Virus record (IMG/VR): IMGVR_UViG_3300029911_000010
Location: 40,428-104,427 of that record
DNA from: a virus
DNA: 64,000 nucleotides
Reading direction: 5' to 3' (one strand)
Shown: in pieces, positions 14,725-32,105 of the stretch
Position numbering within the stretch: the first letter of the stretch is position 1
Layout: each line of letters begins with the position of its first letter
Notes under the pieces: model-generated
What the model was told of the DNA's origin: nothing
The model's input: the letters and a program-made list of their open reading frames with translations, nothing else
The model's database searches: none
Translations under genes and position numbers: made by a program

Positions 14725-17451
14725 TCAGTCTCCAGATTCTTCCATATCTGGGTCTTGTATTTCGTCGAGTCGTGGCTCGATTGTCTTCTCCTTTAGGAAT
14801 AACACTATATCTGCGAGGCTTTCAAAGGCATTTCGCAGCGAATCTTCCATCTCCGGCAAAGAATTTTTGCCATACCGCTCCTTGAAATCATCTTGATGCC
14901 AGTAAAAAAGGAAGAGCAACCGGCCCAGCTTGTCGACGGCTTTCATCAGGTCAGGCAAGTGGCGGTCCACCAGCGAGTCCTGCCGCACCGACTTGAGCAT
15001 GCCGGAGATCATCGAAGTGTCGAACACCTCTTTCTGCCCTTCCTGGCCGGCTTGCTGGGCAGTCTGCACCGCCTTCTGGTCGGGCATCAGGAATGGATCA
15101 TAGATCCGAGGATCAGTCTGCGAGCTGTCCAACCCCGACACCGGCACATGCTCGCTCTGGGGATAGATGGCGTTGACTGAATTGTAGCCGACCTGTTCAC
15201 TACCGTACTCGGGAGCCGGCATGACTGGGGCGTAGGGGCCACCGGACTGCAGATCGCCGCTGGGATAGTAGCCTGCGGTCTTTTCTCGCGGATAGCTCTT
15301 GGCGTATACGACGCGGTACTGCACCGGCGATCCGCTCATGCCGTTGCTGTGAACCTGGGCTTGCTTGAGCATCGCGGCTGCTTCGCTTTCGCCGAGCCCG
15401 TGATCGCGAATCAGACAGAACAGACCATGCCGCCACGGCATGCGCTCGCAGCCTCGCTTGATGGTCTGAATGGACACTTCGCTGTGATCGCCCCACATCT
15501 TCATGGACGCGGTCTTGGTGGTGAACAGCAGTTGAATGTCACCGATGTCGCCGGGGACGATCGGCTTGGGGTCTGAGCCGTCTGAGTCCCAACCAACCGG
15601 GCCGCCGATACTGCTCTTGCTGGGACCGTCGCCGTCGTCTTTCTTGGGCTTGGGCGGATCTTTGAGCTTCATGAACTTGAAAGTATCGGGCACGTGCAAC
15701 GTGCCGGCAGCCGCCCGCAACTTGGTGCCGGGGCGGTCGTTGATCACTAGCAAAGCATCGTAGTTGCTGACATAGCCGCCGTCGCCGGAATAGGACGAAG
15801 GCTCAGTCACCTTGGGCAAACCGCTGGCACGCCCGGCTTTCCAGTCCTCGTAGCCCTTGAAGTCGACCTTGTAACGCTTGTCCTCGTAAACCTTGCTGAC
15901 AACAAACGGGACAGTGCCCTCTCCGGCCTGGTTGATCGCCAGGTAGGTGCCGCCCTTGGACAACGTCTCGGAGTTGCCCAGACCTTTGAACCATTCGCGG
16001 AAATCGTTCTCCGACTCGATTGTTTTGGTCCACAACGACGTGCGGTGACCGTTAAGCCACGACTTCTCGCCGTCGCCCAATCGCACCACCGTACAAAAGT
16101 TCTTTTGCCCGTCGTTGGCACTGGGGGCCTGGACCACCAGCATGCGGCCGAATTCGCCGGGCTTCTCCAGCACTTCGTAGATGCCGGTCTCGTGCGGATT
16201 TGTCAGTTCCGTTCGCACTTGAGTGTTGTACGCATGGCTGATTTCGTCGCCCTTGCGCTCGTCCTTGACCAGATAGCCGTGGTGCAGGAGCTTTTCTTTA
16301 TCCTTCTCGGGAAGTTCCTTGTTGACCGTGAGGCTGACATCCGGGTCAGTGAGAATCTTGACCTTGGGCTTCTTGTCATCTTCGGGCGGCTGGGCTTCCT
16401 TAAGCAGCGAAAAATCCAGTTCACTTCGCGGCTTGTTCGGCGCAATGCGGGTTTCCCACTCGGCTCCTTTGATCAGGCAGTTGGCGGCTTCCTCGGCTGC
16501 CTGCTTGATTCGCAGGCCGACGCGATGGAAGAAATCGCTGCCATAGAACTTATCGAAGGCGACCTTGATGCCGGGGTAGCGCTGGGAGATGTTGTAGGCT
16601 CCTTCCAGCAGGCTGACATCGGTCGCCAGGAAGTCTTCCAGCGACAGTGGGACGTCGGCTAAGGCCGCCTTGACGGGGCTGGCGGGCAGCTTGCTGACGT
16701 CAACTTTGCGATCGGCCGGGGCGTTGGGCCATAGGAAGTTGGCTTGCTTGGTGGCAATGGCCGCCAGCAACGGCAGCGCCGGCACCGCCCAACCGGCCAC
16801 GTCGCGATTGCCGACGCGGATGTAATCCGGCAGCGGTGATTCCGCAGACCGACCTTCGCGGGCGGCAGCAGCTTTGGCCTGTAGTCGCTCCAGAGCACTG
16901 CCGTATTTGTTGTGCGGCGGCGGATAGCTGAGACGTTCGATGTTGGGGGCAATGCCGCCCAGCTGCCAGGTATCCTTGGCCGAGCCTTCGCCCAGGACGT
17001 GCGGCTTGCGGCTGAGGATGTAGTTGACCCAGTTTTCCTTCATGGGCACGAAGGAGTCCTGATTCTTGATATACAAAAGCTCGTGGCCCTTGAGATCACC
17101 GTTGAGGAAGAAGATCGGGGCGTACAGCCACTGCTTGCCGATCTTGAAGCCGAACACGCCGACAGCCTTGGTGTTGTCGTCGTTGCGGTCGACCAGCTGG
17201 AAGCCGACGATGTAGTCGATCAGGCGGGGAGCCTTATCCTTGAGATAGGCATACCCAAGTGAAGAGAAGGATTGCTCAAAGCCCTGCTCCTGCTCGCCGC
17301 CGATGCTCGCCCATTTGATGCCGGGACCCTTGGCCAGTCCGCGAATGTGCATGACCAGCTGCAGCGGTGTCGCGTCGCTGGTGTAAAATTGACCGGCATC
17401 CGTAGCGTGCTTGATGAACGTAATGTGCTTCCGTGCAGTTGTAATTGCCAT
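14725..17451 (-). CDS. Large putative virion protein
   Basis: 908 aa with K-x-A motifs (KHAT, KWAS, KQAN, KAAL, KQAA, KGAE, KEAQ, KTAS, KTAG). Confidence 0.65.
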   Translation of the reverse strand: MAITTARKHITFIKHATDAGQFYTSDATPLQLVMHIRGLAKGPGIKWASIGGEQEQGFEQSFSSLGYAYLKDKAPRLIDYIVGFQLVDRNDDNTKAVGVFGFKIGKQWLYAPIFFLNGDLKGHELLYIKNQDSFVPMKENWVNYILSRKPHVLGEGSAKDTWQLGGIAPNIERLSYPPPHNKYGSALERLQAKAAAAREGRSAESPLPDYIRVGNRDVAGWAVPALPLLAAIATKQANFLWPNAPADRKVDVSKLPASPVKAALADVPLSLEDFLATDVSLLEGAYNISQRYPGIKVAFDKFYGSDFFHRVGLRIKQAAEEAANCLIKGAEWETRIAPNKPRSELDFSLLKEAQPPEDDKKPKVKILTDPDVSLTVNKELPEKDKEKLLHHGYLVKDERKGDEISHAYNTQVRTELTNPHETGIYEVLEKPGEFGRMLVVQAPSANDGQKNFCTVVRLGDGEKSWLNGHRTSLWTKTIESENDFREWFKGLGNSETLSKGGTYLAINQAGEGTVPFVVSKVYEDKRYKVDFKGYEDWKAGRASGLPKVTEPSSYSGDGGYVSNYDALLVINDRPGTKLRAAAGTLHVPDTFKFMKLKDPPKPKKDDGDGPSKSSIGGPVGWDSDGSDPKPIVPGDIGDIQLLFTTKTASMKMWGDHSEVSIQTIKRGCERMPWRHGLFCLIRDHGLGESEAAAMLKQAQVHSNGMSGSPVQYRVVYAKSYPREKTAGYYPSGDLQSGGPYAPVMPAPEYGSEQVGYNSVNAIYPQSEHVPVSGLDSSQTDPRIYDPFLMPDQKAVQTAQQAGQEGQKEVFDTSMISGMLKSVRQDSLVDRHLPDLMKAVDKLGRLLFLFYWHQDDFKERYGKNSLPEMEDSLRNAFESLADIVLFLKEKTIEPRLDEIQDPDMEESGD

Positions 17452-17487
17452 TGCTTTCCGTCCGTGAAAAGGGCATCAGTTTATTTC

Positions 17488-17517
17488 ACTATAACAACCT
17501 ACCGCCTAATGCTCCAA
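17488..17517 (-). promoter_or_regulatory. Sigma70-like promoter
   Basis: TTGGAG-18-TATAGT in the intergenic gap. Confidence 0.4.
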
Positions 17518-17520
17518 ATA

Positions 17521-20500
17521 TCACGGGTTGTTACTGGCGGCTGGGTTCGGACGAACGACTCGCCCAATTTGCTGCCCCATCGAGTTTTGAGCTGTCCAAT
17601 CGATCCAGGCCCCTGGTGTTTTAGCTGCCTGCTCTTCCAACTTGGCGACGCGAAATCGGTCAAAATCCCACAATGTCTTGCGGGCAGCCTGTTGCCCGGC
17701 TCCGTGATCCGCCGATGCGAACATGTCTCGCGGGTCGGTTCCCCCGGACCATCCGCCGGCCGTGTCTTGTTGTATGCGATCAGTGACGCGACGGGCTCCG
17801 CCGAATAACGCTTCGCCTAGACCGCCTCCGATAGTCTTGACGCCGGTTGTTCCAGTCGGCGTAACATTGGCCAGCGCTTTTACACCGGCAGGGATTTCAA
17901 CGACTGGATTAAACGAATGACGCGTAGGAGTCATTCGCTTACTCTCGTCGTTGATCTGCATACCGGTGCCGACTGCGTAGTTCACTCCCATGCGCAAAGG
18001 CATACCTTCGATCGACCCGTCCCAGTTGCTGACACCGGTATAGTCTGCTCCCCGATTCAACGCTACGCGGGCGTCTGTGCCGGCATCGCCGAAAACACGA
18101 GCAGGGATGAACGTCGTCGGCATGGCAGCTGTCATGCCAGTCATGCCCAAATTCATTCCATCACGCCAATTGAACTTGCTTGGATCTTTCCACGTCTCGT
18201 CGCTGATAGGATCGATCAATGAACGATTGACCTCCTCGTTGGCCGCCACCGCCCCTTCGGTCGAATTTATCTGGTTGACACCTTCCATAACCCACGGAAT
18301 ATACGGACTTAACTTGTTCAATGCAGCACCGGTACGTGAAACGCCTCTGGCGAAAGGCGTCATCTTGGCAAACTGTTCGACGTTTCTCGTAGCATTCCCT
18401 GTCCAGGCAAAACGACTCATCGGCATATATCCGCCGCTGGTGCCACGTGCCAGGTTGCTGCCTAACCGGTAAGTGTTGGCAGCTCCAGCCGCTGCCGGCG
18501 CTGCCATGCGATTCCATGCAACCAGACGAGCAGCGTCAACTGCGACAGGTGCCATCAATGTCATCCGACCGGCGTGCAACATTTGACTCGTGCGTTGATC
18601 GGATATACCGCGTTCACGCATCAGCTGATCGTATTTGGTAGACTTAGTCTGTTTCGTCAAATCCAGTAACTGCTCGGCCTGGTTTGTCGTCTGTGTAAGC
18701 TGATCCCACAGTTGTTTGCGTGTTTCGTAGTCAGCGCCGCTGGACTGGTTGTACTGCTGAATCAACTGATTTCGCTGTGCAACAGCGGCATTAAGCTGAT
18801 TGTCCATGGCGACGATCTGAGGATCGGCTTTCATCTGCTGAGTCACCTCAGCCATAATTTTGAGAGTGTCCGGCGACGGCTGCGACTCTTCGGCGGCAGG
18901 AGTCGGAGTTGACGGAGTCGTAGCTGCCGGAGCAGGCGGTCCCATGACCGGGGCCGCCGGCGTCGGGGCCGGAGCCGCCGGCGCTACCACCGCAGGCTGC
19001 GGGGCAGGAACTGCAGGGACTGGCGTCGCGGGCGGGGTCGGACTTGCAGGAGCAACTGATGTCGACAACGGAGGTAGCTGAGGCCGAGATGGCTGCTTTG
19101 CCAGACTGCCGAGCCAGCGCTCGGGATTGTCGAGGTGACCGTCTGTTTCACGTTGCTGTCCTCCGAATAGTCCTTTTGTCAGCGAACCCAGAGCGCTGTA
19201 GTCCAAATTGCCAAAGATCGCCGCCGGAGCCAGCGGTCCCAGTTTGTTGATCAGCGGGGCTTCCATGCCCAGCATCTTGCCCCCCATCAGCGAATTAGGG
19301 CTGTAGCTGTCAAAGAAGTGTTGCGGCTTGTACGGCTCGGGCTTCGGCGCTGCAGAAGCTAGCGGCGATGCTGGAGCGGTCGGAGCCGTAGGAGCTGAGA
19401 TCGATCCGCCAGCCGGCTTGCTGCCGTCCGTGGCAGATCCCCCGGAGCCGCCGCTTAACTCGGCGCTGACTTTGAGACCAGCCTCCGGCGTGTGAATCAA
19501 GCCCTGCCGCCCAAAGTCTACTGCCTTAGCCAGGCTGGGCACGAAGCTGGTGCCTTCTTCGTCGCTGACTGCGCCGCGATGGGCAGCGTCCAGCAACGAG
19601 CCCTTGAGACCCGATCCATACATACGGACCATCCAGTCCGGGTCTTGTGCCAGGTTAGCCATGCCCCGAACCATCTCGGCCTTGAAAGGCGGTGGCTTGT
19701 CGTGAACCTTGACCTTCTTGACGCCGAACTCCGCCAGATCCTTCTGCACGGACGGGCGGATCTTGGTGCCGATCGAGTAATGCAACACCGGCTTCTCAAG
19801 ATACTTGTCGCGGGCCAGCGACGGCTCTACATCCTGAGCGTCTTTGCGGGGTTCGTAGATGTGCTCCAGCGTTGAGTACGGCACCATGTCGTCGGGAACG
19901 TATTCGCCCATCTCATCCGTCAGTCGAACGTGATTGATCAGTCCACGGCTCAGCAGCTCGACGTTGCGGCGGTGAGCCTTGATGCCGGCGTTGCTCATTG
20001 CGTCGCCAAACACCTTGGTGAAGTACCGCCGGCCTTCGCCAATGCCCTTGTGTTCTACCACCTTGGCGGGATTGGGCCAGCCCTCGGAGATCACGTCTCC
20101 GGCTTCCACCCGGTCACCGGGGTTGACAGTGAGGTTATGACCAGCCGCAACGTAGTGTCGCTCGCCGCCGATCCAGGCGTACTTGCCGCCGGCCGGAGCA
20201 TCTTCGGATCGTCCCACTGGTCCGTCCACTTCACTGTGAGTGGCACCGCCCTTGAACACTTTAGGCACCTGGATCATCTGACTGATGGTATCAAAGCCGC
20301 TGACCGCCTTGCCCTCGCCGGCCACGCCGCCGGTGTGCTTGGAACTGAGCTGTGCCTGACTCAAAGGCTCGCTGAACGCCTGGACGGCGGCCAAGCCCGG
20401 CAACTCGCCCCTACCCGGCAGCGTACCGTTCTCCCGCACGCCGGCATCGCGGGCATAGATGCCACCTTCGATGCTGCCGCCAATGATCGGGCTACGCACC

Positions 20501-22488
20501 AGGATGCGACCCAGACCACGGTGTTTGAGGTCGGCGGCGATCTTGGGCGTGATAACCGTGTTGCGTTTATACGGCCCCGTGTCCTTGGCCAGCAGCGCTC
20601 CTTCATTGTCCGGATCTTCGGTGTCGACCGGCATCCCCCGCATGTTATCGCGGTTGTCGCCTTGATTCTCGTGATCATTGTCGACAACGACCAGCCGGTG
20701 AGCTACCTGGTTGAGCTGCTTAGAGTTCGAGACGATCGCCCCGTTGGCAAGGACGAACAGGTGGTCCGGGTGGTCTACTTCGATGTCGTAGGTTGGCACC
20801 ACGCCGACGTACTCCTTCTCGACGTAGGAGTAAACAAAGTCGTCTTGACGGGTCTGCGGTTCCATCCCTTGCAGCAAATCAGCCAACACCTGGGCTTTGC
20901 GACCGGGCAGCGGGATGTATCGGGCGAACTTGAGGATCGAGTCGCGGTTGTTGATGACGATGCACCACCCGTCATGGTTTCCCTTTTCGGCGACATCGAC
21001 CCGTCGTATCGGACAGGAGTGGATGCCGAACCGTAGGGCCAATAGATCGCGGACGGTATAGACCATGATCTCTGACGTCATCGTGAGGATGATCGCGGGG
21101 ACCGTCGAGTTATTGGTCAGCGTGACGCATCCGTCCGATTCATAGACGCCAGCGATCATCGCCGCGACGGATGGGTTGTCCCATCGGTACGCCTCGGACG
21201 GGACGCACTTCTCGTGGGCGAACTTGCCGAGCACACCCAGTTTCCGCAACCAAGTTCGCAGCCGGTTCCGCTGTCCGTGCCCGGTACGTTGCCGATCTAG
21301 GACGGCGTATTCGTAGGGGTGGCCTTCGCCTCGCCATCGCAGTTCCAAACCCAAGGTGATCAAGTAATCGCGTAGGTAGTCGACGAGGACCTGATCGGCG
21401 GTCGACAGGTAGACCGTACTGCCCGTCAGGCCACCGTCCCCTAGCAATAAGCCCAGGAGCAATGCGCGAGGCTCGGACGAGCCTATGGCCCGGTCGTAAC
21501 CGTCGGCAAGTCCTTGGATCGGAGTCAGGCGGAATCCGAATCCGGCCCGGCTCAAGGGTAGCTGCGTCGGCGTGAGAATCGAGTTCTTGTCACCATGTGT
21601 CGTGCCGGCCCGACCACGCCGCATTGTCGCCAAGACCTTATGGTTTTCGGTTGCCTCGACTGTGATAAATGAGTCACGGGCCTTGCCAACGCGGAAGCGA
21701 TAACGCCACACGTCCTTCGGCCCGTTGTCGAATGCGGCTGTGACCTTGACGGGGAACGTATGACCGGAGGCATCGGCCCCCAAGACGAAATCACCTGATT
21801 TGAGCTGCTCAATGTTACAGGACTCGCCATACGGTAGTCGCACCTGTGTGCCACGGGCCAAACACAGAAAGCCCGCGTCCTGGGTGGCAAACTTGACGTC
21901 TATGACGCCCTTACGGGCACCGTAGGAGCCGGCCCAGTATTCCCAGGGGCGAAGACCCTCGCTGTAGCTCCGCATGACCGGCACCGGAATGACGTTGCCC
22001 CGGTGATCGGCGTAAAGCATATCCGAGCCCAGGAGGCTGGACAGGTTCATCTTGTTGCCCCGGCCAGCGCCGGCCAGCTGGTGAGCCAGGGGATTGTCGT
22101 TGGCCTTGGCTTCGTTGAAGACGGCTTCCTGCTGCTCTTTCTGTCTGTCGCCGACCGTGCGGATCAACAACTGCTCACGCTTGTTATCGTCCAGCGTGTC
22201 GTCGTCTAGAATGCGATGGATCTTGGGTTCAATCTGATTGCGAAAGTCGGTTGATGCCTGGCTCTTGCGCAGATGCCTGAGACCAAACGAAAAGCCTCCC
22301 GTATCCTGGGCCACCTGCCGGCCGATGTTGGCAATCTTGTGGGAGATATCGCGATAGCGGTCCGGGTACCGGCGGGCTACGTCGCCAAGAAGCTTGCCCA
22401 GCGATTTTTTATCCAAGGTGCGATCGTAGTCTCGCATGTCCTCGGGAAGGGCATCGTTGACCAGAAGTTGTCCCAGGGTCGTCTGCAC
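17521..22488 (-). CDS. rpoC: Phage RNA polymerase beta-prime C-terminal subunit with intein and long C-terminal extension
   Basis: SYSEGL..EYW..SYGARKGVID..ATQDAGFL (bridge helix) and AVQAFSEPLSQAQLSSKHTGG (trigger loop). Confidence 0.85.
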   Translation of the reverse strand: MQTTLGQLLVNDALPEDMRDYDRTLDKKSLGKLLGDVARRYPDRYRDISHKIANIGRQVAQDTGGFSFGLRHLRKSQASTDFRNQIEPKIHRILDDDTLDDNKREQLLIRTVGDRQKEQQEAVFNEAKANDNPLAHQLAGAGRGNKMNLSSLLGSDMLYADHRGNVIPVPVMRSYSEGLRPWEYWAGSYGARKGVIDVKFATQDAGFLCLARGTQVRLPYGESCNIEQLKSGDFVLGADASGHTFPVKVTAAFDNGPKDVWRYRFRVGKARDSFITVEATENHKVLATMRRGRAGTTHGDKNSILTPTQLPLSRAGFGFRLTPIQGLADGYDRAIGSSEPRALLLGLLLGDGGLTGSTVYLSTADQVLVDYLRDYLITLGLELRWRGEGHPYEYAVLDRQRTGHGQRNRLRTWLRKLGVLGKFAHEKCVPSEAYRWDNPSVAAMIAGVYESDGCVTLTNNSTVPAIILTMTSEIMVYTVRDLLALRFGIHSCPIRRVDVAEKGNHDGWCIVINNRDSILKFARYIPLPGRKAQVLADLLQGMEPQTRQDDFVYSYVEKEYVGVVPTYDIEVDHPDHLFVLANGAIVSNSKQLNQVAHRLVVVDNDHENQGDNRDNMRGMPVDTEDPDNEGALLAKDTGPYKRNTVITPKIAADLKHRGLGRILVRSPIIGGSIEGGIYARDAGVRENGTLPGRGELPGLAAVQAFSEPLSQAQLSSKHTGGVAGEGKAVSGFDTISQMIQVPKVFKGGATHSEVDGPVGRSEDAPAGGKYAWIGGERHYVAAGHNLTVNPGDRVEAGDVISEGWPNPAKVVEHKGIGEGRRYFTKVFGDAMSNAGIKAHRRNVELLSRGLINHVRLTDEMGEYVPDDMVPYSTLEHIYEPRKDAQDVEPSLARDKYLEKPVLHYSIGTKIRPSVQKDLAEFGVKKVKVHDKPPPFKAEMVRGMANLAQDPDWMVRMYGSGLKGSLLDAAHRGAVSDEEGTSFVPSLAKAVDFGRQGLIHTPEAGLKVSAELSGGSGGSATDGSKPAGGSISAPTAPTAPASPLASAAPKPEPYKPQHFFDSYSPNSLMGGKMLGMEAPLINKLGPLAPAAIFGNLDYSALGSLTKGLFGGQQRETDGHLDNPERWLGSLAKQPSRPQLPPLSTSVAPASPTPPATPVPAVPAPQPAVVAPAAPAPTPAAPVMGPPAPAATTPSTPTPAAEESQPSPDTLKIMAEVTQQMKADPQIVAMDNQLNAAVAQRNQLIQQYNQSSGADYETRKQLWDQLTQTTNQAEQLLDLTKQTKSTKYDQLMRERGISDQRTSQMLHAGRMTLMAPVAVDAARLVAWNRMAAPAAAGAANTYRLGSNLARGTSGGYMPMSRFAWTGNATRNVEQFAKMTPFARGVSRTGAALNKLSPYIPWVMEGVNQINSTEGAVAANEEVNRSLIDPISDETWKDPSKFNWRDGMNLGMTGMTAAMPTTFIPARVFGDAGTDARVALNRGADYTGVSNWDGSIEGMPLRMGVNYAVGTGMQINDESKRMTPTRHSFNPVVEIPAGVKALANVTPTGTTGVKTIGGGLGEALFGGARRVTDRIQQDTAGGWSGGTDPRDMFASADHGAGQQAARKTLWDFDRFRVAKLEEQAAKTPGAWIDWTAQNSMGQQIGRVVRPNPAASNNP
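20725..21864 (-). mobile_element. Intein with LAGLIDADG endonuclease (380 aa) in the bridge helix
   Basis: AGFL|CLARGTQV...TYDIEV..DHLFVLANGAIVSN|SKQL; LLGLLLGDG and IAGVYESDG blocks. Confidence 0.9.
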
Positions 22489-22575
22489 CGTTCATTGCCT
22501 ACTCTGCAAAAATTGATTTGTAATAGGCGACCGCCGTCTGGAGTCCGGCGGCCGCCTCATGGATTCCCCCGCAAA

Positions 22576-23595
22576 TCATTTCTCGTCCATGTCATTGGAC
22601 AAATCAGCCAACGGATCGTGCCGTTCAACCGCAACCGGCTCGGCGGATTCAGCTTTGGCGGCCGCCACCACCGGATCTTCGTCTGCCGCCGACTGCGTGG
22701 GCACCGTCTGCACCTGCACGGTTTCTTTCTTGCCCTTGGGCCGCTTGCCGCCCTTGCCGATCGGGCCGTGGGGCCTTTCGCCCTCCAAACCCATCGCGTT
22801 GTGGGCTGCCGTCACTACCGGGTCCAGTGACCGGCCCGTGCTGACCGGCACTGAGTCGTCTTCGGCCATCCCCTCACCGCCCTTGACGAAGGAGGAAAAG
22901 TCGCCCAGCTGCACTGCCGACGAATCGGGCTCTTCGACAATCGGGGGCGGCCGCACCTTGCCGAACATCTGCCGGGCCAGGTCGGCTCCGTCCTTAACCG
23001 CCGGCACCAGCTTGATGCGCTGGGCCTGCTCTTCGGTGGCCCGACTGCGAGCGATGCCCAAATCGATCGCCGCCTGAATGCGGCGCTCGCACTCAGGCGT
23101 GAACACTTCCACATAGATCGGATGCGTGCCGCCGTCTGCTAAGGCCGCGAAGATCGCGTCAGCGGCTGCCGTAACGCCGCTCTTATCCTTCACGCGGATC
23201 GGCGTGACCACGTCACCAGCCCCGGCAGCCTGGTATACCTGTCCGGCAATACGAGGATCGCGACGGGAGTCGGCCGGCACCAAGGTGCCATCCCGCATGC
23301 GCTTGAGGGGTTCCATGGGAACGTCCACCGGACCTTTGGGCTGCCCCATCTGGCTACGGGCCGAGCCTCCCGAGCGGTAATACTGATCCGTGTTGGTATC
23401 GCCGGCCAGCTGCACCGGCGTTCGGGCAGTCTGCAACGGACCACCGGGTCGACCACGTCGGGTCATGGCGTTTCGGTTGTTGATTGCCGACGCTCCTCGG
23501 GGAGCGTAGTAGGCGGCATCCGCCGTCATGTTCGGATTGCGGGGTGCCCCCGAGTCGGCGACTTGCACGACAGATGGGGCTTGTTGCTTGGCCAT
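22576..23595 (-). CDS. Hypothetical low-complexity protein
   Basis: AAGGAG SD; 339 aa. Confidence 0.6.
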   Translation of the reverse strand: MAKQQAPSVVQVADSGAPRNPNMTADAAYYAPRGASAINNRNAMTRRGRPGGPLQTARTPVQLAGDTNTDQYYRSGGSARSQMGQPKGPVDVPMEPLKRMRDGTLVPADSRRDPRIAGQVYQAAGAGDVVTPIRVKDKSGVTAAADAIFAALADGGTHPIYVEVFTPECERRIQAAIDLGIARSRATEEQAQRIKLVPAVKDGADLARQMFGKVRPPPIVEEPDSSAVQLGDFSSFVKGGEGMAEDDSVPVSTGRSLDPVVTAAHNAMGLEGERPHGPIGKGGKRPKGKKETVQVQTVPTQSAADEDPVVAAAKAESAEPVAVERHDPLADLSNDMDEK

Positions 23596-23606
23596 GAATG
23601 AACTCC

Positions 23607-23921
23607 TTAAAAACCGCCAGGCTTGCTGATCAGCGAAGCCCCGGATGGCGGCTGCGGCAGCGACAAGCGGTCAACGATGACCTTGTGCCGTCCGTAACCT
23701 AGATTATGAAGCGTACGATTAAACTTTTCCTGGCCTTCACCGGCATGGCAGACGCTTATAGCGCCCTGCGTGCCGTACTCCGCTGCAACGACAATTGGCG
23801 TACCGTCGTCGTTGAACGCCAGGAACTGGGATGCGTCCAGCTCCAACGGAGGTTCACCGATTCTGGAAATGACGTGCAGCTTCATGCCTACGCCGCCGGC
23901 TTGGTGTTTCGAGCATTCCAA
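23607..23921 (-). CDS. Hypothetical protein; probable start at MKLH (23885)
   Basis: Fits the operon geometry. Confidence 0.5.
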   Translation of the reverse strand: MECSKHQAGGVGMKLHVISRIGEPPLELDASQFLAFNDDGTPIVVAAEYGTQGAISVCHAGEGQEKFNRTLHNLGYGRHKVIVDRLSLPQPPSGASLISKPGGF

Positions 23922-24601
23922 AAGGCACGAATAGCTGACGCCCGATTGCTGACCTGACCCAGCTTCTCGGTGTCAAACGCCTGACCTTCGGCCGCATAGG
24001 AAGCGCTCTTGCCGCCGGCCAGTTGTGGGCTTGCGCCCTGCATCGGCTGAATCGGCGAGATGGCACTGCCTGGGCCTGCGCCGCCAGCTCCGCCGGCCCC
24101 GCCAGCTGGACCACCAGCCGCGCCGGTCTGTTGCTGCATGCCGAAGTTGGTCAAATCGCTCTGGGTCGCCACCATCTCACTGGCGGGGATCTGGACGCCC
24201 AGCGTGTCGGCGATCTTGGCCAGAATCTTGAGGATCTGCAACAATGTCACGTTGACGTCGATCTTGGGCTTGATCGGCTCCATGCCGCCACCGCCGCCGC
24301 CCATGCCTCCTTGCGACTGGATCAGCTGCATGACCTGCTGGACGATTGCTCCCGTGTCGGGAGGCGGAGGCGGCGGAGGTGCCCCGCCACCACCACCGCC
24401 GGAGGGATCGCCGCCGGGAGGGGGAGCAGCGCCGGGAGGAGCGCCACCACCGCCACCGGGAGGAGCGCCAGCGCCGCCACCTGCCGCTGACGGGTCCATT
24501 GCCGGATCTCCGGCCGGGACAAACGCCTGCTTAGAAAAACCAGCCACAGCCTGAATGGCCATGGCGATTGCTTCGGGATTGACAAGATGCTGGTTGCTCA
24601 T
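23888..24601 (-). CDS. Gly/Pro-rich putative virion protein (scaffold-like)
   Basis: Start at ATG 24601; KQAF, KIAD, KSAS; PPGGDPSGG motif shared with 6736..8064. Confidence 0.6.
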   Translation of the reverse strand: MSNQHLVNPEAIAMAIQAVAGFSKQAFVPAGDPAMDPSAAGGGAGAPPGGGGGAPPGAAPPPGGDPSGGGGGGAPPPPPPPDTGAIVQQVMQLIQSQGGMGGGGGGMEPIKPKIDVNVTLLQILKILAKIADTLGVQIPASEMVATQSDLTNFGMQQQTGAAGGPAGGAGGAGGAGPGSAISPIQPMQGASPQLAGGKSASYAAEGQAFDTEKLGQVSNRASAIRAFWNARNTKPAA

Positions 24602-24643
24602 GATTCGCTTCCTTGCGAAAGTTACCGTCCGTGGACGTATTTT

Positions 24644-24672
24644 AGTGTAACCGGCTCGGCGCAATCCGCCAA
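24644..24672 (-). promoter_or_regulatory. Sigma70-like promoter
   Basis: TTGGCG-17-TACACT. Confidence 0.5.
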
Positions 24673-24678
24673 GCTCGT

Positions 24679-27600
24679 CTATTTTTGCTCTTCCAGAATG
24701 TGAACGGCGTCGCCGATTTCGATCTCTTTATTCAACCACGAGGCGATTGCATCCGCCTTGGACCGAAACGTGCGCTCAGGCCGTTTGCTCTTGTTGGTGC
24801 TGGCTGCGTAAATCCCGCCGACATACTCCTGACTGGGCACATGCACCGGCGACTTGAAATCCGCCGGGCTCAAAAGCGAATGGCTGGGCAGCATCCGTTC
24901 CAGGGCTTCGACGCGGGCGGCTTCGTCGGTGGGAACGTGATACTGCATGGCGTCGCCGTCGAAGTCGGCGTTGAATCCCTTAACCACCAGCGGAGAGATC
25001 TGCAGTGTGCTGCCTTTAGTCAGCCTGGGGCGAAACGCCATGATGCCAAAACGATGCAGCACCGGAGCCCGGTTGATGATGACCGGGCGTTCGCCCATTT
25101 CTTCTTCCAACGCCTTGCGGGCCAGCTTTCCTTTGTCCTTAATCTCCTGTAACGCTGCCATCATCGGCATGCCCTGTCGTTTGAGCCGCCGCACGACGAA
25201 CCGGCTGTAGACGTCAAAAGCCCGATCCTCGGGCAAGCCGACGCTGTCCATGTCCAGGTCCGGGTTGGGCGTTATGACAGCCCGACCAACGTTGTCCACC
25301 GTGCTGGAAATCAACTTGCGCTGGACAGTGCCGAACTTGGGGCTGGAGCCGAAGATGCTTCTGAGAATGCCGTGAACTTCTTTGTCCCTGCTCTGCTGTG
25401 TAATCGGCTCCCCCAGACCGGTGACTGCCTTGAAGGCGTTATAGACAGCCAGCCGCTCAGCGCCGACACCTTCGTCGCCGAGCTGCTGCTTCATCTCGCC
25501 CAGATTCTTGTCAGCCTCGTGCAGTTCCTTGTAGAGAAAATTGGGATCGTCCACCAGCGGCACGTTGCTGCCGCTCATCAGACTGACGGGGCGAAACTGC
25601 GGCGGCAGCACCGGCACGCGGCTCATCATCCAGTCCTTGGGATGAATGCCCAGCCTCTTGGCGCTCTTGAGATAGCCCAGCTTGCGAATCGCCGCGTCAC
25701 GACTGGATTTGCTGCCGTGCTCGATCGTCGCCCTGACCTTGGCCAGCTCGCTGTCGACGTTGACCTTGCCCAGCGCCTTGGCGATAGCCGAAGGTCCGGT
25801 CCCGTAGTCGGGCAGGGTGTGCTTGCCCGCCAGCGTGTCCTCGAATTCATTGCCGGTCAAACCCAGCACACGGCGGATGGGTTCTTCCATCACCGGGTTG
25901 GGCATCGCCTCGCTAAGCGGAACGGCTGCCCATTTAGTACCGTGATGGCCGCCGGTCAGCTCTGAGTCGAACAAGCCGCCTTCGATCGGTTCCAGTCCCT
26001 TGTCGAAATGCACCGTGTCGCCGTGCTTGAGGTTACGATCGCCGGCCAGAGTGTCGACGTCCTTGTCGGTCATCGCCATGACGTGCAGCTGCGAGCCGTC
26101 CCGCACGACGTTGATGCCGGAGGCTTTAAGCTGGGCGATGAACTTGTTGTACACCATCGGAACGCGGGGTTCCCTGGGCGTGAAGCCTTGCATGAACTGC
26201 AGCCAGTAGTCGTCGTTCTTCTGCCCGCGAATGGCCCCGGCGTCCCGCAGCACCTGTGTGGCCCCGTGGCTAAGCAATGCGTTGGAGTCCAGCAGGGAGA
26301 TACGCTTAGAGCCTGTTTCGCCGCCTTTGGCCGGCGTCTCATCAGACGAGTAAGCGCCGCCGCCACGCCCCTGGCCTTTACTTTCGGCGGTGTGGTGCAG
26401 CTTCATGAAAAACCGGTTGCCGGTGTAGACTCCGTGGATCGCCTTGCCGCTCTTGGGATCGATTACGTCCTCGGTGTCGGGCAAGCCGTGCTGCTGCATC
26501 AGCTTTTCAACCCAGGCGATGCGATCGGGGATGTTCGGGTCCCAATCCTCCGCCTTGAACGATCGGCCGGTCTTGGCGGCAATGGCTCCCAGCTTGGCTT
26601 CCGCCCACTGAGCGGGGTTGGTGTTGCCGGCGATCAGCATTTTCCCGTTACGACGGGTGACGACGTACCCGGTCGGTACAGTGGGGCAGTACACCGTACC
26701 GTCGTATTGAACCTTCTTCCAATTCTGTGCCTCCAGTACCCGATGCTTTTTCAGGTAGATGGCCGTACGCCACATACTCGACGCAGGCTGCAACGCCACG
26801 TTAGACGATACGCCTTGATAAATCAGCAACCGTTGAAGATCCGCCGCAAGACGAGGCGACATCGTCCCTGCGCCAGTATAATCACGAGCACGCTCTGAGC
26901 TATCCTTGCAGCCGTCGCCGGCCAGGTAGCCATCAAGAAACCGCTGCCGCGTGGCTGGACTCTGCTTGAACACCCACTCCGGGATGAACTTGTCGGCACA
27001 CAGTCCCAGTCCGAGCGACTTGATATAGTCACACAGCCGTTTTGAGGTAACGTGGAATTGCGTGTTATCTTCGTTGTAGTTCCACGCGAACGGCAGCCGC
27101 TTCAACAACTTGACGATGTGCCGGCAGTTAGCTGCATTAGCCGAATGACTTTGGGAGACGTGGACCTTGTCGTCGACGTTGCCCTCAGCGACGTACCATC
27201 CCAGGAACTCGGCCCAATCGCCGGGGTCGATCTCGATCAGGCTCCGGTCACTGCGGCTGTCCTTAGTTTGTCGGTCAATCTGCGGCAGCACGAACGGCTC
27301 GTCCGTGCCTTTGACCGGATTACCGGCAACGGGGACAACCCAGTCGTGGAACGCTATGCGGGAAGCGGGCACCTCTTGCCATGTTGCTCCAGGGTAGCCG
27401 CACTTGGCCCACATACGGTGGTTCGGCGTGACACAGAAGTCCATCAGCTTGTTCTGAAAACGTAACATCGGCCCCTTGTACGGGGCGGCGTGGAACGCCT
27501 CCAATTGGTCCAACAGGTAAAGATTGCCAGTCGGCGTGTGATAGCACGCGAACCGATCTGCGGTCGTGACGTCTTTCCCGAACACCCAGCCTCGTTCGGT

Positions 27601-27735
27601 AAGGAACTCCGTTTGGTCGTCGTAGCACCTGCTAATCACACCTAAAGGATTTAACAGAACCTCGTACGGCTTGCCGCCATTGTCGTGTGGCATCTGGGCG
27701 TCGGGGATGATCGAGGAGACGACACCTTTATCACC
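24679..27735 (-). CDS. RNA polymerase beta C-terminus fused to beta-prime N-terminal catalytic half (in-frame continuation after TGA at 27736-27738)
   Basis: DKGVVS, LNPLGVISR, MKLHH, PVLPPQFRP, NRAPVLH, and NADFDGD at 24952-24972. Confidence 0.9.
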   Translation of the reverse strand, partial: GDKGVVSSIIPDAQMPHDNGGKPYEVLLNPLGVISRCYDDQTEFLTERGWVFGKDVTTADRFACYHTPTGNLYLLDQLEAFHAAPYKGPMLRFQNKLMDFCVTPNHRMWAKCGYPGATWQEVPASRIAFHDWVVPVAGNPVKGTDEPFVLPQIDRQTKDSRSDRSLIEIDPGDWAEFLGWYVAEGNVDDKVHVSQSHSANAANCRHIVKLLKRLPFAWNYNEDNTQFHVTSKRLCDYIKSLGLGLCADKFIPEWVFKQSPATRQRFLDGYLAGDGCKDSSERARDYTGAGTMSPRLAADLQRLLIYQGVSSNVALQPASSMWRTAIYLKKHRVLEAQNWKKVQYDGTVYCPTVPTGYVVTRRNGKMLIAGNTNPAQWAEAKLGAIAAKTGRSFKAEDWDPNIPDRIAWVEKLMQQHGLPDTEDVIDPKSGKAIHGVYTGNRFFMKLHHTAESKGQGRGGGAYSSDETPAKGGETGSKRISLLDSNALLSHGATQVLRDAGAIRGQKNDDYWLQFMQGFTPREPRVPMVYNKFIAQLKASGINVVRDGSQLHVMAMTDKDVDTLAGDRNLKHGDTVHFDKGLEPIEGGLFDSELTGGHHGTKWAAVPLSEAMPNPVMEEPIRRVLGLTGNEFEDTLAGKHTLPDYGTGPSAIAKALGKVNVDSELAKVRATIEHGSKSSRDAAIRKLGYLKSAKRLGIHPKDWMMSRVPVLPPQFRPVSLMSGSNVPLVDDPNFLYKELHEADKNLGEMKQQLGDEGVGAERLAVYNAFKAVTGLGEPITQQSRDKEVHGILRSIFGSSPKFGTVQRKLISSTVDNVGRAVITPNPDLDMDSVGLPEDRAFDVYSRFVVRRLKRQGMPMMAALQEIKDKGKLARKALEEEMGERPVIINRAPVLHRFGIMAFRPRLTKGSTLQISPLVVKGFNADFDGDAMQYHVPTDEAARVEALERMLPSHSLLSPADFKSPVHVPSQEYVGGIYAASTNKSKRPERTFRSKADAIASWLNKEIEIGDAVHILEEQK
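26623..27627 (-). mobile_element. Intein with LAGLIDADG endonuclease (335 aa)
   Basis: VISR|CYDDQTEFLT...VYCPTVPTGYVVTRRNGKMLIAGN|TNP; FLGWYVAEG and FLDGYLAGDG. Confidence 0.9.
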
Positions 27736-30700
27736 TCAGCCGTACCGGCCGCTATTTTGCGACCAGTACGTTTTGTCCCTCCTTTCCACGTAAAGGGTGT
27801 GATTCGGAACAGTGACGCAATACACCATGCCGTCATAAGCGACGACGGTCTCTTCGACACTCTCGTAAGTGTTAGCCTTGCCTTTCTTCCACCACGGTCG
27901 CAAGTGTCGACGGTTGATCCGGGCTCGCCAGTGCCGTTCTTTGGCCCAGTTGTCAGTCCGTGTGACTTCCTTGACGGACGCGCACCAGCCGAGCTTCAAG
28001 CAGATCAACTGCATGTCGTACGCTAAACGCTCGGACGACGTGCTGTATTCCCAGCAGTCACCTTTGTGCCCATCGCCTGCCAGGTAAGCGTCGAAGAAAA
28101 CACCAAGCTGCCGTGGTGGAAGCTCTTGAACGTATTCAGGCACTCGCTCGGTGTAACTGTCGCCCAGCGGTGCGAGTTGTGCAGCCAGCCAGGCATTGCC
28201 GAGTTCAAAACGCTGGTCACCTTCGTTGTAGTAGAACGGTAAACCGAGTCGGTCGATGACATCACGAATCGCAGTAAAGTGCGGCGACTCACGAAACTGT
28301 GCAATCTTGACATAATTACCGACGCACCAGCCTTCGGCGATGTAGTAGCCTAAAAACTCCAGCCAGTCATCCATCGCAACGCGATCGAGTACGACGCGAT
28401 CACTACGGTGCTTCACGTCAACGATGGGGAACGCGTAGAACGGCTGATCTTGTCCGACCCAAGCGCAGTCCTTCTTAAACTGCCATTCGCCCTTGGACGC
28501 ATAAAACTCGCGGGCCGTCACCGCGCTGTATGGCTCGCCTGGACGTGACACCCACAAACGGTGGTCCATCGTCACCAGCATGTCAAGATGTTTGGTGACG
28601 AGCTTGTACATCTCACCTTTGTGCTCGTACGCCCAAACGTGTGTCGGTCGCTGCCACTCCAATTGTTCGGACGCGTTCAGCGTGGCTACCCAGTCATCGA
28701 CCGTCACATCCGCCACGGAAACAAATCCACGGTTTTTCGTCAGCACTCGTGTCTCGGTGTCGAAGCACATCTTGTCACCGACCTGCGTCGGGTGCTTGCT
28801 CTTGACCACCACCACCGGGCCGTCCTTGCCGTCGACCACGTCGGTGACGACACCCTCGTCGTGATGATCCCAGGTGATGCTGGCGTCGGCGAAAGGAGCC
28901 TGCCGCTTCTTGTGAATCTTGTTGGCCGAGTGCTCGCGTTGTTCGGCGGCAATGATTAACGGATCGCCGTGTTTTACCGTGGTGCCGACCTTGATCACAC
29001 CGCGATCGTCCATGTTGTCCAGTGTCTTGCGATCATAACGGCCGGGAAACAATGAGATGTAGTTGCTCTTGCCGATCTTGTGCTGGTCGCTGATTTCCAG
29101 ACCGTGTTGATACATGTGCTCGGAGGTCATCCGCTTGGCCATCGACTCGCTGATGACCGTGGCATCCTCAAAGTTTTGCCCGCCCCACGGCAGATACGCC
29201 ACACGGGCGTTAAGCCCCAACGCCGAAGCACCCTTCTTGTCGGTGAAGTTGGAGTGGGCCATCAACTGACCCTGCGAAAACCGGTCACCGGGTTTTACAG
29301 TCGGCGTCTGGTGGATGAACGTCTTGCGGTTGTACGGATGATTGTTGTACAGCTCCAGCGTGGCCGTCGTGCCATCGTCGTGCTTGACCTTTATGCCTTC
29401 GGGCGTCACGTCCAGCACCCGGCCGCCCTTGTCGGCGAACATGGCACCCATGTGCTTGCCGTACTCATCCTCGTAGCTGCGATTGCCGTTGCTGCCGGGC
29501 ACGGCGTTCTGCACCAGCGGCGACTCAGCGCCAATCACCGGCAGGGCCTGAGTGCTCATACGGCTGGCCATGCTGGCACGTTGCCCCTTGAGCATGCTCT
29601 TGAGCGGAATGAAATGGTCCAGTGGGCTGAACGCATGCTCAAACTGCGGCAACGTCAACGTTACGTCGCGTTTCTTGACCCAGGTCAGCCGGCCGCCCTG
29701 CATGGCCGGAATGCGCTTGTAAGGCAAACCCATGGCTCCAGGAAACGTGACGGTGGTATCGGCAATCTCCTGCGGCGTTTTGTAGACCGTCTTGCCGGTG
29801 TTGACGTCAGTAAAGCTGCCGTACAGCTTGCCGTCTGAACCTTTGCGGGCATTGCCGGCCAGATAGGTGTCTACACCAGCCTTAAAACTTTCCGGGGTCC
29901 GCAAAGGATCGATAAATCCGTAGTGGCTGGGCTGCACCGACCGGGCTTCGTCCGGGATGGCGTCGTAGCTGGGAATGCCGCCTTCGCCCATGCGGCTGAC
30001 CTGGGTGTTCTTGTCCAGGATCTCGGCGGGGTTGATTTCTTCCAGCGACCGGCCGAGCCCCGAGTCCAGCAGCGCCGAATCCAGTTGACCCTGCAGCGGG
30101 CGAGTCGGCATGGATTGCAGATCACCTTTGAAGCCGGCCTTGTATAGCAGCTGCCGCTGCACGCCGGCCCGATCCTTAGCCAACCGCTCGCGGAACAGAT
30201 CCTCGGGGCCGAGAAACCGCTGGTAAGCCAGGTGATCGCGATCGTCGGGAGGTGATTCGCCGCGACTGACCGCCAACAGCCTGCGAGTAATCGACAGCAT
30301 CGCATCTTTGTTGAGATTCTGATGCGGATGATCGAGTGTGTGCTTGGTGACCTCCGGGTCAAGCGTCATTCCTTCGAACGCTTTTCGGATGGCATCATCC
30401 AGCGAGCCTTCGACTTTGCCGCCCAGTACCTTGTCCTTGAGCTTGTGCAGCGCCTGCTCGTCCTTGCCCACGACAGAGTTGGTCTGATGCAGTTCCGGTC
30501 CCCAGGCATCACGAATTTCCTTGTCGCTGGCCCCCATGGTCTTAAGCAACGGCATCAATGGGATGTTGGCGTTGCCCATCTTAATGAAAAAGCGGCCCTT
30601 TTCCGGGTCCAGCCAATACCGATGGCTGGGTCCACCGGCCAACACGTTGGTGTGCGTCTCGATCTCGCCGTTTTCCTTGGTGCGAGTGAACGGGCCGGAC

Positions 30701-31158
30701 AGCAGTCGCGACTGATGCACCAGGGCGTATTCGTTGCCCTTGTTGACGAACGTGCCGCCCTCAGTCAAATGCGGCACCTTAAACAATGTCATGGGCCGCC
30801 TGTCCATCTCCTTGCCGCTGTTGTTGTCGGTCAACACCCAGGTGCCCCGCAGACGACGTCCCAGCGTGTCACCTCGCAAGCTGGCTTCCTTGCGATCCTT
30901 TTTGCTGAACGTATCGCCATCCATCCACTGGACGTCTCGCAACGACAGCGTGTGCTTGAGATTGGACACTGGCTTGAGATTGAGAGCCGCGTCGTAGACG
31001 TTGTCGTATATCGCTTTGCGGGTGGCGTCGATGTCTCCGAAGTTCCGCAAGCCCGCCGGCTCCTTGGGCTTGGGCGATGCTGCCGGCGGCGCAATCGGCC
31101 CAGGTCCGCTAAGCAGATCGGGTTCACTGGGCATGAGGTTGTAAGGAGAATCATCCAT
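27736..31158 (-). CDS. rpoB: Phage RNA polymerase beta subunit (main part) with intein
   Basis: RSVQPSHYGFIDPLRTPES, RASMASRMSTQA, GLNARVAYLPWGGQNFEDA, VGDKM. Confidence 0.9.
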   Translation of the reverse strand: MDDSPYNLMPSEPDLLSGPGPIAPPAASPKPKEPAGLRNFGDIDATRKAIYDNVYDAALNLKPVSNLKHTLSLRDVQWMDGDTFSKKDRKEASLRGDTLGRRLRGTWVLTDNNSGKEMDRRPMTLFKVPHLTEGGTFVNKGNEYALVHQSRLLSGPFTRTKENGEIETHTNVLAGGPSHRYWLDPEKGRFFIKMGNANIPLMPLLKTMGASDKEIRDAWGPELHQTNSVVGKDEQALHKLKDKVLGGKVEGSLDDAIRKAFEGMTLDPEVTKHTLDHPHQNLNKDAMLSITRRLLAVSRGESPPDDRDHLAYQRFLGPEDLFRERLAKDRAGVQRQLLYKAGFKGDLQSMPTRPLQGQLDSALLDSGLGRSLEEINPAEILDKNTQVSRMGEGGIPSYDAIPDEARSVQPSHYGFIDPLRTPESFKAGVDTYLAGNARKGSDGKLYGSFTDVNTGKTVYKTPQEIADTTVTFPGAMGLPYKRIPAMQGGRLTWVKKRDVTLTLPQFEHAFSPLDHFIPLKSMLKGQRASMASRMSTQALPVIGAESPLVQNAVPGSNGNRSYEDEYGKHMGAMFADKGGRVLDVTPEGIKVKHDDGTTATLELYNNHPYNRKTFIHQTPTVKPGDRFSQGQLMAHSNFTDKKGASALGLNARVAYLPWGGQNFEDATVISESMAKRMTSEHMYQHGLEISDQHKIGKSNYISLFPGRYDRKTLDNMDDRGVIKVGTTVKHGDPLIIAAEQREHSANKIHKKRQAPFADASITWDHHDEGVVTDVVDGKDGPVVVVKSKHPTQVGDKMCFDTETRVLTKNRGFVSVADVTVDDWVATLNASEQLEWQRPTHVWAYEHKGEMYKLVTKHLDMLVTMDHRLWVSRPGEPYSAVTAREFYASKGEWQFKKDCAWVGQDQPFYAFPIVDVKHRSDRVVLDRVAMDDWLEFLGYYIAEGWCVGNYVKIAQFRESPHFTAIRDVIDRLGLPFYYNEGDQRFELGNAWLAAQLAPLGDSYTERVPEYVQELPPRQLGVFFDAYLAGDGHKGDCWEYSTSSERLAYDMQLICLKLGWCASVKEVTRTDNWAKERHWRARINRRHLRPWWKKGKANTYESVEETVVAYDGMVYCVTVPNHTLYVERRDKTYWSQNSGRYG
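27754..28767 (-). mobile_element. Intein with LAGLIDADG endonuclease (338 aa)
   Basis: GDKM|CFDTETRVLT...VYCVTVPNHTLYVERRDKTYWSQN|SGRYG; FLGYYIAEG and FDAYLAGDG. Confidence 0.9.
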
Positions 31159-31160
31159 GG

Positions 31161-32105
31161 CTAGTGAAACAAGTCGCCGATCGAATTGCGCACGTGTCCC
31201 AGCAACGACTTCTCGGACGGGTCGGCCTCGGCTTGCATGTCACGGTCAGCACCGCCGCCGGGCGACATGAAGTTTTCCGACACTGGAACGGGCTTGGGCA
31301 TGGCCATGACTTCGCTGGGCCGCTGGGAATACATCCGGCGATTACGGCGATCAATTGCCTTCTGCAACACCTTTGGTCCACTCTGCTTCGTCTCCGCGTC
31401 GTACATCGCCTTGCCGGCGAGACCGCCGCTGCCCAGGCCGTATAACAGATAAAGCTGAGCCACGCGCTGGGTCATGTTGGGATCAGCCAGCCCGCCGAAA
31501 TTCCAGCTCGCCAGACCGCTGGCCTGTTTCTCCTGCAGCTTGTCGTACAGGGCGTCCAGGGCGCTGCCCAGCTGCAAAGCCGTGTCCTGTTGATCTCCGG
31601 CCAGCTTTCCCGCATCAATAGACGTCACACCATGCGGCTTTCTCGCCTTGGGGTAGCTTTCCACCAGAGACCGCTCAAAATCCTGCCGGGCATCTTCCAC
31701 ATCCTGCTCGTTGGCGTCCTGCCGTCGTTTGGACAACAACGCATCCACGCCTTTCCAGCCGCCGTACAAACCCAAACCGCCGGCCACTGCCAGCGTCGGC
31801 GCGTAAGACCAGTGATTTTGGTAGCTGTCGACCATTCCGGCCTTGCCCATGGCCCCCGCCTCTACGGGGATGGGCACGCTGGTGAGCATGGCTCCGGGAT
31901 ACGGATTCTTCTTGCGCCTGGCCGTGGTGTTGTACAAGCCGGTCAGCCCGCGAGCGCCGGCTCCAATACCGAGACCCGCCAGGCCGAGTCCAGCTGCATC
32001 ACGCAGGACTGCTTCCATGTTCAACTGGTTGACGGCATTGACCGCCGTGTTGTCTACTGCGGTCTTGGCCAACCGCGATGCCGTGGCAAAAGGATCAATC
32101 GTCAT
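31161..32105 (-). CDS. Glycine-zipper putative internal virion protein
   Basis: Start at ATG 32105; KTAV, KLAG, KQAS; GLGLAGLGIGAG and other hydrophobic Gly-rich helices. Confidence 0.55.
   Translation of the reverse strand: MTIDPFATASRLAKTAVDNTAVNAVNQLNMEAVLRDAAGLGLAGLGIGAGARGLTGLYNTTARRKKNPYPGAMLTSVPIPVEAGAMGKAGMVDSYQNHWSYAPTLAVAGGLGLYGGWKGVDALLSKRRQDANEQDVEDARQDFERSLVESYPKARKPHGVTSIDAGKLAGDQQDTALQLGSALDALYDKLQEKQASGLASWNFGGLADPNMTQRVAQLYLLYGLGSGGLAGKAMYDAETKQSGPKVLQKAIDRRNRRMYSQRPSEVMAMPKPVPVSENFMSPGGGADRDMQAEADPSEKSLLGHVRNSIGDLFH

Follow-up and report, generated by a model that had tools for sequence, protein, structure and literature searches.

A conserved in-frame stop in the RNA polymerase beta gene of an uncultured phage and its probable bypass by a hairpin-assisted stop-hop

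How can a phage make its RNA polymerase (RNAP) when the gene for the beta subunit carries a stop codon in the middle of a catalytic motif? This question is raised by a 64,000-nucleotide stretch of viral DNA (positions 40,428 to 104,427 of IMG/VR record IMGVR_UViG_3300029911_000010; hereafter the window), which is part of a 104-kb metagenome record that was judged 47% complete and that comes from an uncultured phage of approximately 220 kb. On the minus strand of the window, from 31158 to 24679, there is one reading frame of 2160 codons that is intact except for a single internal stop and that encodes, in order, the N-terminal part of beta, intein 1, SGRYG-stop-GDKGVV...GVISR, intein 2, and the rest of beta together with the half of beta-prime that carries NADFDGD. 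We propose that ribosomes probably cross this stop by a programmed short-range translational bypass, or stop-hop, which would be driven by an RNA hairpin located 5' of the break together with the stop codon in the ribosomal A site.

The break in the RNAP beta gene and its conservation

A first-pass annotation of the window, made without database searches, had singled out this site as a candidate stop-hop, and its reading of the bases is borne out: minus-strand positions 27724-27756 read AGC GGC CGG TAC GGC TGA GGT GAT AAA GGT GTC GTC, or SGRYG-stop-GDKGVV. The two surplus codons that it counted (exactly 6 bases) are absent from approximately 80 homologues, which have SGRYG-DKGVV, and the site does lie between two inteins (Table 1). 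The next in-frame ATG, which the same annotation had placed at 27693 beyond the conserved Lys, is also the first of any ATG, GTG or TTG and lies 14 codons past the Asp. Contigs from four other peat-metagenome runs, perhaps of one sampling campaign, span 27736-27741 with 0 differences and 0 indels when compared as contigs, and similar breaks are present in independent assemblies of other samples.

From approximately 830 homologues of the broken gene, the best 120 were examined. Those that lack inteins are beta/beta-prime-N fusions of approximately 1475-1500 amino acids with the sequence GDK[ML]-SGRYGDKGV[VI], and those with inteins of other types at the same site read N-SGRYGDKGV across the junction and have no break. 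The motif is near-invariant in approximately 80 homologues, its variation being limited to Tyr/Phe/His, Asp/Asn and Gly/Ser. The first-pass annotation had suggested looking for the same break in relatives, and we found it after SGRYG in 26 diverged homologues (45-60% identity; among the best 120 of approximately 830), all of which end exactly at ...Y[WL]SxN-SGRYG after the same type of intein. Judged by these homologues, the stop goes with a single clade of inteins, in which it is conserved. Gene callers split the gene into two open reading frames (ORFs) in every relative, and the annotated downstream partner proteins start at a Met (in P0145, the equivalent of Met 27693), such that a search with their N-termini was uninformative for the true start. 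Apart from the window's own record, a search of IMG/VR for the pattern N-S-G-R-Y-G-xx-D-K-G gave no match, an IMG/VR search for a Y-L-S-L-N-type junction pattern gave none, and literature searches turned up no publication on the site.

Several observations bear on whether the part of the gene beyond the stop is translated. DNA is available for six alleles that are related to each other, namely those of the window (W), L005, L051, L011, L006 (= L010) and L055. Over the 13 codons from the Asp to the first ATG, the ratio of nonsynonymous to synonymous divergence (pN/pS) is 0.26, with pS near saturation, and the other two frames of the same bases give 0.98 and 2.16. In W, L051 and L006, no ATG, GTG or TTG able to start the downstream stretch precedes the conserved Lys. 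In L005, L011 and L055, a TTG or GTG is found upstream in the downstream frame, and these candidate starts are not conserved. Two relatives, 90% and 100% complete, have the broken gene as their sole match to Rpb2_6; in the window's own genome, given its 47% complete record, a second polymerase is possible. Together, the purifying selection, the lack of a start codon and the status of the broken gene as sole beta gene in complete relatives indicate that the gene is in use and that translation must cross the break. The broken gene is thus neither an error nor dead.

Frame-independent inserts and a conserved 5' hairpin

We defined the insert of each allele as the bases that separate TAC GGY from GAY AAR GG (Y, pyrimidine; R, purine). 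A stop codon opens the insert in all six alleles, with TGA, TAG and TAA all in use, and the frame in which GAY AAR GG follows (0, +1 or +2) differs between alleles. The six inserts align as a deletion series from one ancestral insert. The codon immediately before GAY is also the first GGY located 3' of the take-off GGY in W, L005, L051 and L011, at +6, +5, +7 and +11, respectively, and the non-coding gap (the insert less its landing codon) amounts to 2-8 nt across alleles. The stop is followed by C in three of the six, and a stop followed by C is a weak termination context in E. coli. Because inserts of 5-11 nt occur in three frames, plain readthrough or any single frameshift is excluded as the common mechanism and, as read from these alleles, only bypass would yield the canonical motif in every one of them. 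Selenocysteine insertion and reassignment of TGA to Gly or Trp were also considered and ruled out: TGA is the commonest stop of the genome, where it ends 46 of 94 long ORFs, and the relatives use TAA and TAG. The 104-kb record contains one tRNA gene (Pro), and the window contains none.

The break is preceded by a 12-bp RNA hairpin whose 5' arm is formed by the intein codons for T-Y-W-S and whose 3' arm is formed by the extein codons for S-G-R-Y and takes in the initial G of the take-off codon. RNAalifold recovers this helix in all six alleles, always with its end at base 1 of the take-off Gly codon; 72 of 72 cells are paired, versus 17-54% when the register is slid by 1-3 columns. Two pairs show compensatory change, one from TCG/AGC to TCA/AGT and the other from C..G to G..C via a Ser codon that goes from AGC to TCC. 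Single-sequence folds have z-scores of -3.7 to -5.8, and synonymous divergence (pS) is 0.26 in the arms as compared to 0.84 over the 30 codons that precede them and 0.76 beyond them. In L011, the longest gap coincides with the longest helix (16 bp). This 12-bp hairpin, which the first-pass annotation had missed, displaces the small CGGCCG-GUA-CGGCUG hairpin proposed there. Fold prediction gives the second hairpin of that annotation, GAGGUGAUA/UGUCGUCUC on the 3' side, for the window and, weakly, for L005; it is not conserved in relatives. An intrinsic terminator was ruled out, there being no U-tract after the conserved hairpin.

Scanning the 104-kb record for hop-like sites gave four other cases of matched codons, none of them comparable: their upstream folds range from -4 to -13 kcal/mol versus -22 kcal/mol at the RNAP site, and three have a start within 3-8 codons. 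The fourth, near window position 55075 (record 95502, minus strand), consists of CAA-TGA with a CAA at +7 and a 151-codon open frame whose first start is codon 19; its upstream fold is weak (-9.4 kcal/mol) and it is probably an ordinary gene junction.

Table 1. Features of the broken RNAP beta gene in the window and inserts of the six alleles (positions are those of the window unless an allele is named)
Feature	Position	Strand	Basis or remark
RNAP beta N-terminal extein, 797 aa, ending ...VGDKM	28768..31158	-	Pfam Rpb2 domains 2, 3, 6
Intein 1, 338 aa, Cys1 ... Gln-Asn, +1 Ser, LAGLIDADG motifs	27754..28767	-	translation; intein clade always found with the break
12-bp RNA hairpin	27741..27770	-	5' arm 27759-27770, loop 27753-27758, 3' arm 27741-27752
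Putative take-off codon GGC (Gly of SGRYG)	27739..27741	-	sequence
In-frame stop TGA, the entire coding gap of the window allele	27736..27738	-	sequence
Putative landing codon GGT	27733..27735	-	sequence
Window-specific 9-bp hairpin, from within the stop codon across the landing codon	27716..27737	-	fold prediction; not conserved
Resumed coding DKGVVSSIIPDAQMPHDNGGKPYEVLLNPLGVISR, holds the conserved Lys of the GxKG motif	27628..27732	-	pN/pS; first 13 codons without a preceding start codon
Intein 2, 335 aa, LAGLIDADG	26623..27627	-	translation, domain search
Beta C-part fused to beta-prime N-half (NADFDGD), including the stop codon	24679..26622	-	Pfam Rpb2_6, Rpb1_2
Window insert			TGAGGT, 6 nt
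L005 insert			TAGGT, 5 nt
L051 insert			TGAAGGC, 7 nt
L011 insert			TGACTAAAGGT, 11 nt
L006 (= L010) insert			TAACTAAGC, 9 nt
L055 insert			TAACGAT, 7 nt
Sister alleles lacking a GGY landing codon	L006:6033-6060, L055:7923-7950		AGC, GAT before GAY AAR

A proposed stop-hop weighed against other explanations

A stop in the A site, a Gly codon in the P site, a second Gly codon nearby and a repair of the motif that is independent of frame together fit translational bypassing, and from these patterns we infer the hop itself, the role of the hairpin in it and its efficiency. The ribosome would decode the N-terminal part of beta, intein 1 and SGRYG and then pause, its P site holding peptidyl-tRNA-Gly on GGC and its A site a slowly decoded UGA. 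With GGC so placed, the 3' arm of the hairpin (12 nt ending on the first P-site base) would lie inside the ribosome, and the 5' arm and loop would already have left it. Zipping of the helix could then pull the mRNA from the exit side, upon which the anticodon of tRNA-Gly would release and the ribosome would move a few bases forward. The tRNA would re-pair on the next GGY (GGU at +6 in the window) and decoding would continue at GAU AAA, giving a single chain with the canonical SGRYG-DKGVV from which splicing of inteins 1 and 2 would produce a beta/beta-prime-N fusion subunit.

As first put forward for the window, the stop-hop involved take-off at GGC, a gap of one codon and landing on GGT, with possible hairpins flanking the site. 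Its core agrees with the breaks of the relatives, their independence of frame, the selection downstream and the matched GGY codons; its details need correction, given that gap length varies and that the conserved stimulator would be the 12-bp hairpin 5' of the take-off codon. The matched GGY pair itself is found in four of the six alleles, the window included, with L006 and L055 being near-cognate only. These two alleles are among the points that weigh against a stop-hop: neither AGC in L006 nor GAT in L055 is a GGY landing codon and each matches at two of three positions, meaning that either landing tolerates such pairing or both alleles are decoded differently or poorly. In addition, the DNA covers six alleles only, all of them related; the covariation comprises two events; the arms of the hairpin also code for conserved residues; and every proven natural bypass spans a gap far longer than 2-8 nt. 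Constructs made in E. coli in 1987 reportedly hop at about 1%, a rate that looks too modest for the synthesis of an essential enzyme if the hairpin does not increase it.

Frame independence would also follow if two polypeptides were made from separate ORFs, with release at the stop, separate synthesis of the downstream chain and non-covalent assembly of the fragments. We regard this as rather unlikely. Multisubunit RNAPs do tolerate some natural splits, gene callers annotate two ORFs, and L005, L011 and L055 have their upstream TTG or GTG, but such starts are not conserved, and neither W nor L051 nor L006 offers an ATG, GTG or TTG before the Lys. Moreover, the break falls inside a motif that is near-invariant in approximately 80 homologues rather than in a variable loop, and neither the repeated Gly codon nor the hairpin has a role in ordinary initiation. 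A variant of the two-chain explanation would have post-termination ribosomes hold on to deacylated tRNA-Gly, move along to the landing codon and start again there with no initiator tRNA, or would invoke an unusual start; to our knowledge, initiator-free restart is known only from ribosome-recycling mutants. The precise end of the conserved hairpin at the junction could instead reflect removal or editing at the RNA level, whereby a phage or host activity recognizes the hairpin and takes the insert out of the mRNA, leaving ordinary translation to follow. This idea is in line with a different RNAP family in which a group I intron, starting with TAAC as two of the inserts do, occupies this very codon boundary. 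We nonetheless consider RNA-level removal quite unlikely: pieces of 5-11 nt are too short for a self-splicing core, Rfam finds no ribozyme in 17000-32000, the matched Gly codons of four of the six alleles are left unexplained, and we know of no enzyme that cuts such short pieces from mRNA.

The remaining explanations fare worse against the evidence given above. It is very improbable that the window uses readthrough and its relatives use -1 or +1 frameshifts, with 2-4 extra residues kept in the motif. In favor of this, the insert of the window keeps the frame, and no stop is leakier than UGA; against it, three types of recoding would be needed, variable peptides (xG, LG, EG, LTKG, xLS and ND) would be put into a near-invariant motif, the stop can also be UAA or UAG, this genome uses TGA as an ordinary stop, and coding in relatives resumes in +1 and +2. 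Likewise hardly to be expected is a gene that has decayed or become dispensable, or a downstream protein truncated so as to begin at Met 27693 and lack the Lys loop. Gene callers do begin the downstream ORF at that Met (P0145), and the incomplete record allows for a second polymerase, but the 13 codons preceding the Met are under purifying selection, the break persists across a deep clade, the broken gene is the sole beta gene in complete relatives, and the rest of the 2160-codon frame is intact. Assembly or sequencing error, conceivable for any record that is a metagenome contig, has a negligible probability given the identity of four other runs and the homologous breaks in independent assemblies. 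Both error and inactivating mutation had been listed as alternatives by the first-pass annotation, and the identical contig bases, the purifying selection and the conserved break speak against both. Compared with two chains, RNA-level removal, readthrough or frameshift products and gene decay, the stop-hop accounts for the six alleles most simply.

Intein clade, locus and relation to known recoding systems

In a quick, preliminary tree of the inteins, the 26 stop-bearing inteins form one deep clade. Nested within it are two read-through members, P0014 and P0020, which have His in place of the Tyr whose codon the hairpin needs, suggesting that insert and helix were lost together. Intein 1 has the features of a homing intein, including CFD..., VTMDH (block B TxxH), ...QN followed by S, and the two LAGLIDADG motifs LGYYIAEG and YLAGDG, all of them invariant columns of the intein alignment; the penultimate His is absent. 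Precomputed Pfam matches to LAGLIDADG_3 exist for P0002-P0004, which have extra insertions, and for P0008 and P0009, whose lengths are near that of the window's ORF1. Searches of GTDB genomes returned no relative of the intein, and GenBank phages returned distant inteins only. In another viral RNAP family, a 470-nt group I intron (L030:2999-3468; Rfam RF00028, 52.8 bits) separates the Gly codon of SNRHG from QKGT, and the intein that immediately precedes it is a relative of intein 1. The intron occupies the same codon boundary as the mini-insert, and it begins with TAAC as do the inserts of L006 and L055. A search of 17000-32000 of the window with Rfam found no group I core (RF00028) and no ribozyme; L030 alone gave a match to that core. 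The mini-insert may, speculatively, be what is left of a group I intron or something that blocks intron invasion. On a wider reading, which we consider less likely than not, short stop-hops that depend on an exit-side hairpin would be a general natural decoding device carried by selfish elements. The intein clade would then have kept the mini-insert, perhaps an intron leftover or block, harmless by drawing part of the hairpin from its own last codons, making it a protein-splicing element that encodes an RNA signal which repairs a neighboring break.

The layout of the RNAP genes (window 17521-31158) is unusual in that beta and the catalytic half of beta-prime share one frame. The C-terminal half of beta-prime is encoded at 17521-22488, three ORFs downstream, and contains a third LAGLIDADG intein; a Pfam search with the ORFs between the two RNAP parts gave no match. 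A DNA search against GenBank phages gave no match either, and the nearest cultured RNAP beta is approximately 29% identical. With respect to intein 2, a 130-nt contig of run X4, which has 8 differences from window 27635-27718, passes from mid-extein directly into ...SR-TNPAQWA and ends short of the hop site, showing that a strain without intein 2 co-occurs. The resumed codons for K-G-V (window 27724-27732; L005, L011) read AAAGGAG or AAAGGUG, which resembles a Shine-Dalgarno (SD) sequence and the GGA motif bound by CsrA.

Among known systems, the closest in working is the bypass of T4 gene 60, where take-off occurs at GGA followed by UAG (10.1101/2022.08.31.505936; PMC5009743) and where pairing of the exiting mRNA has been proposed as the driver of forward movement (10.1101/2024.12.09.627546). 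Gene 60 and its homologues in the MobA homing-endonuclease cassette share with the RNAP site a Gly codon for take-off, putative in our case, with a stop right behind it, a landing codon read by the same tRNA and setting the frame, mRNA structure near the take-off site, and a link to a selfish homing element in an essential phage gene. By contrast, the gap is 50 nt in gene 60 versus 2-8 nt here, and the two share no sequence homology. The take-off codon of gene 60 is in the 5' side of a stem-loop, whereas here the helix is 5' of the codon, which sits at its 3' end, and a topoisomerase with free-standing MobA is replaced by RNAP beta with a LAGLIDADG intein. Judged by its sequence, the RNAP site would resemble gene 60 in how it works and falls outside the gene 60/MobA cassette.

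The RNAP site also resembles synthetic stop-hops between matched codons (Weiss et al. 1987, as described in PMC5009743), in which codons matched around a stop allow 9 nt to yield one residue, as in the window, with shifts of +5 and +6, as in L005 and the window. Those constructs were engineered and had no stimulatory structure, whereas the present site is natural, conserved and paired with a hairpin. The byp elements of Magnusiomyces capitatus mitochondria (PMC5009743) are similarly short non-coding inserts in conserved coding sequence that are hopped between matched codons. They too seem mobile or insert-derived, but they are mitochondrial, involve an unassigned sense codon instead of a stop and are many per genome, as opposed to one site tied to one intein clade. 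Their length is said to be 27-55 nt. Finally, in the +1 frameshift of prfB (RF2), the ribosome has a stop in its A site and is pushed forward as an RNA duplex forms immediately 5' of the P-site codon, much as we propose here. That duplex is formed by the SD and anti-SD sequences rather than by an mRNA hairpin, and the shift is of one base to an overlapping codon, in contrast to a non-overlapping codon 5-11 nt away.

A review from 2016 knew of no natural stop-hop (PMC5009743). T4 gene 60 is the one well-studied bacterial bypass, to which the RNAP site would add a natural stop-hop. It would offer a natural series of 2-8-nt gaps next to a single, defined hairpin of 30 nt and could be read out through an essential catalytic motif, opening to test what drives forward movement, how far the pull of the hairpin reaches and how strict the pairing at the landing codon must be. 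For annotation, screens that take a stop in a catalytic motif as the mark of a pseudogene would discard the only RNA polymerase of these phages.

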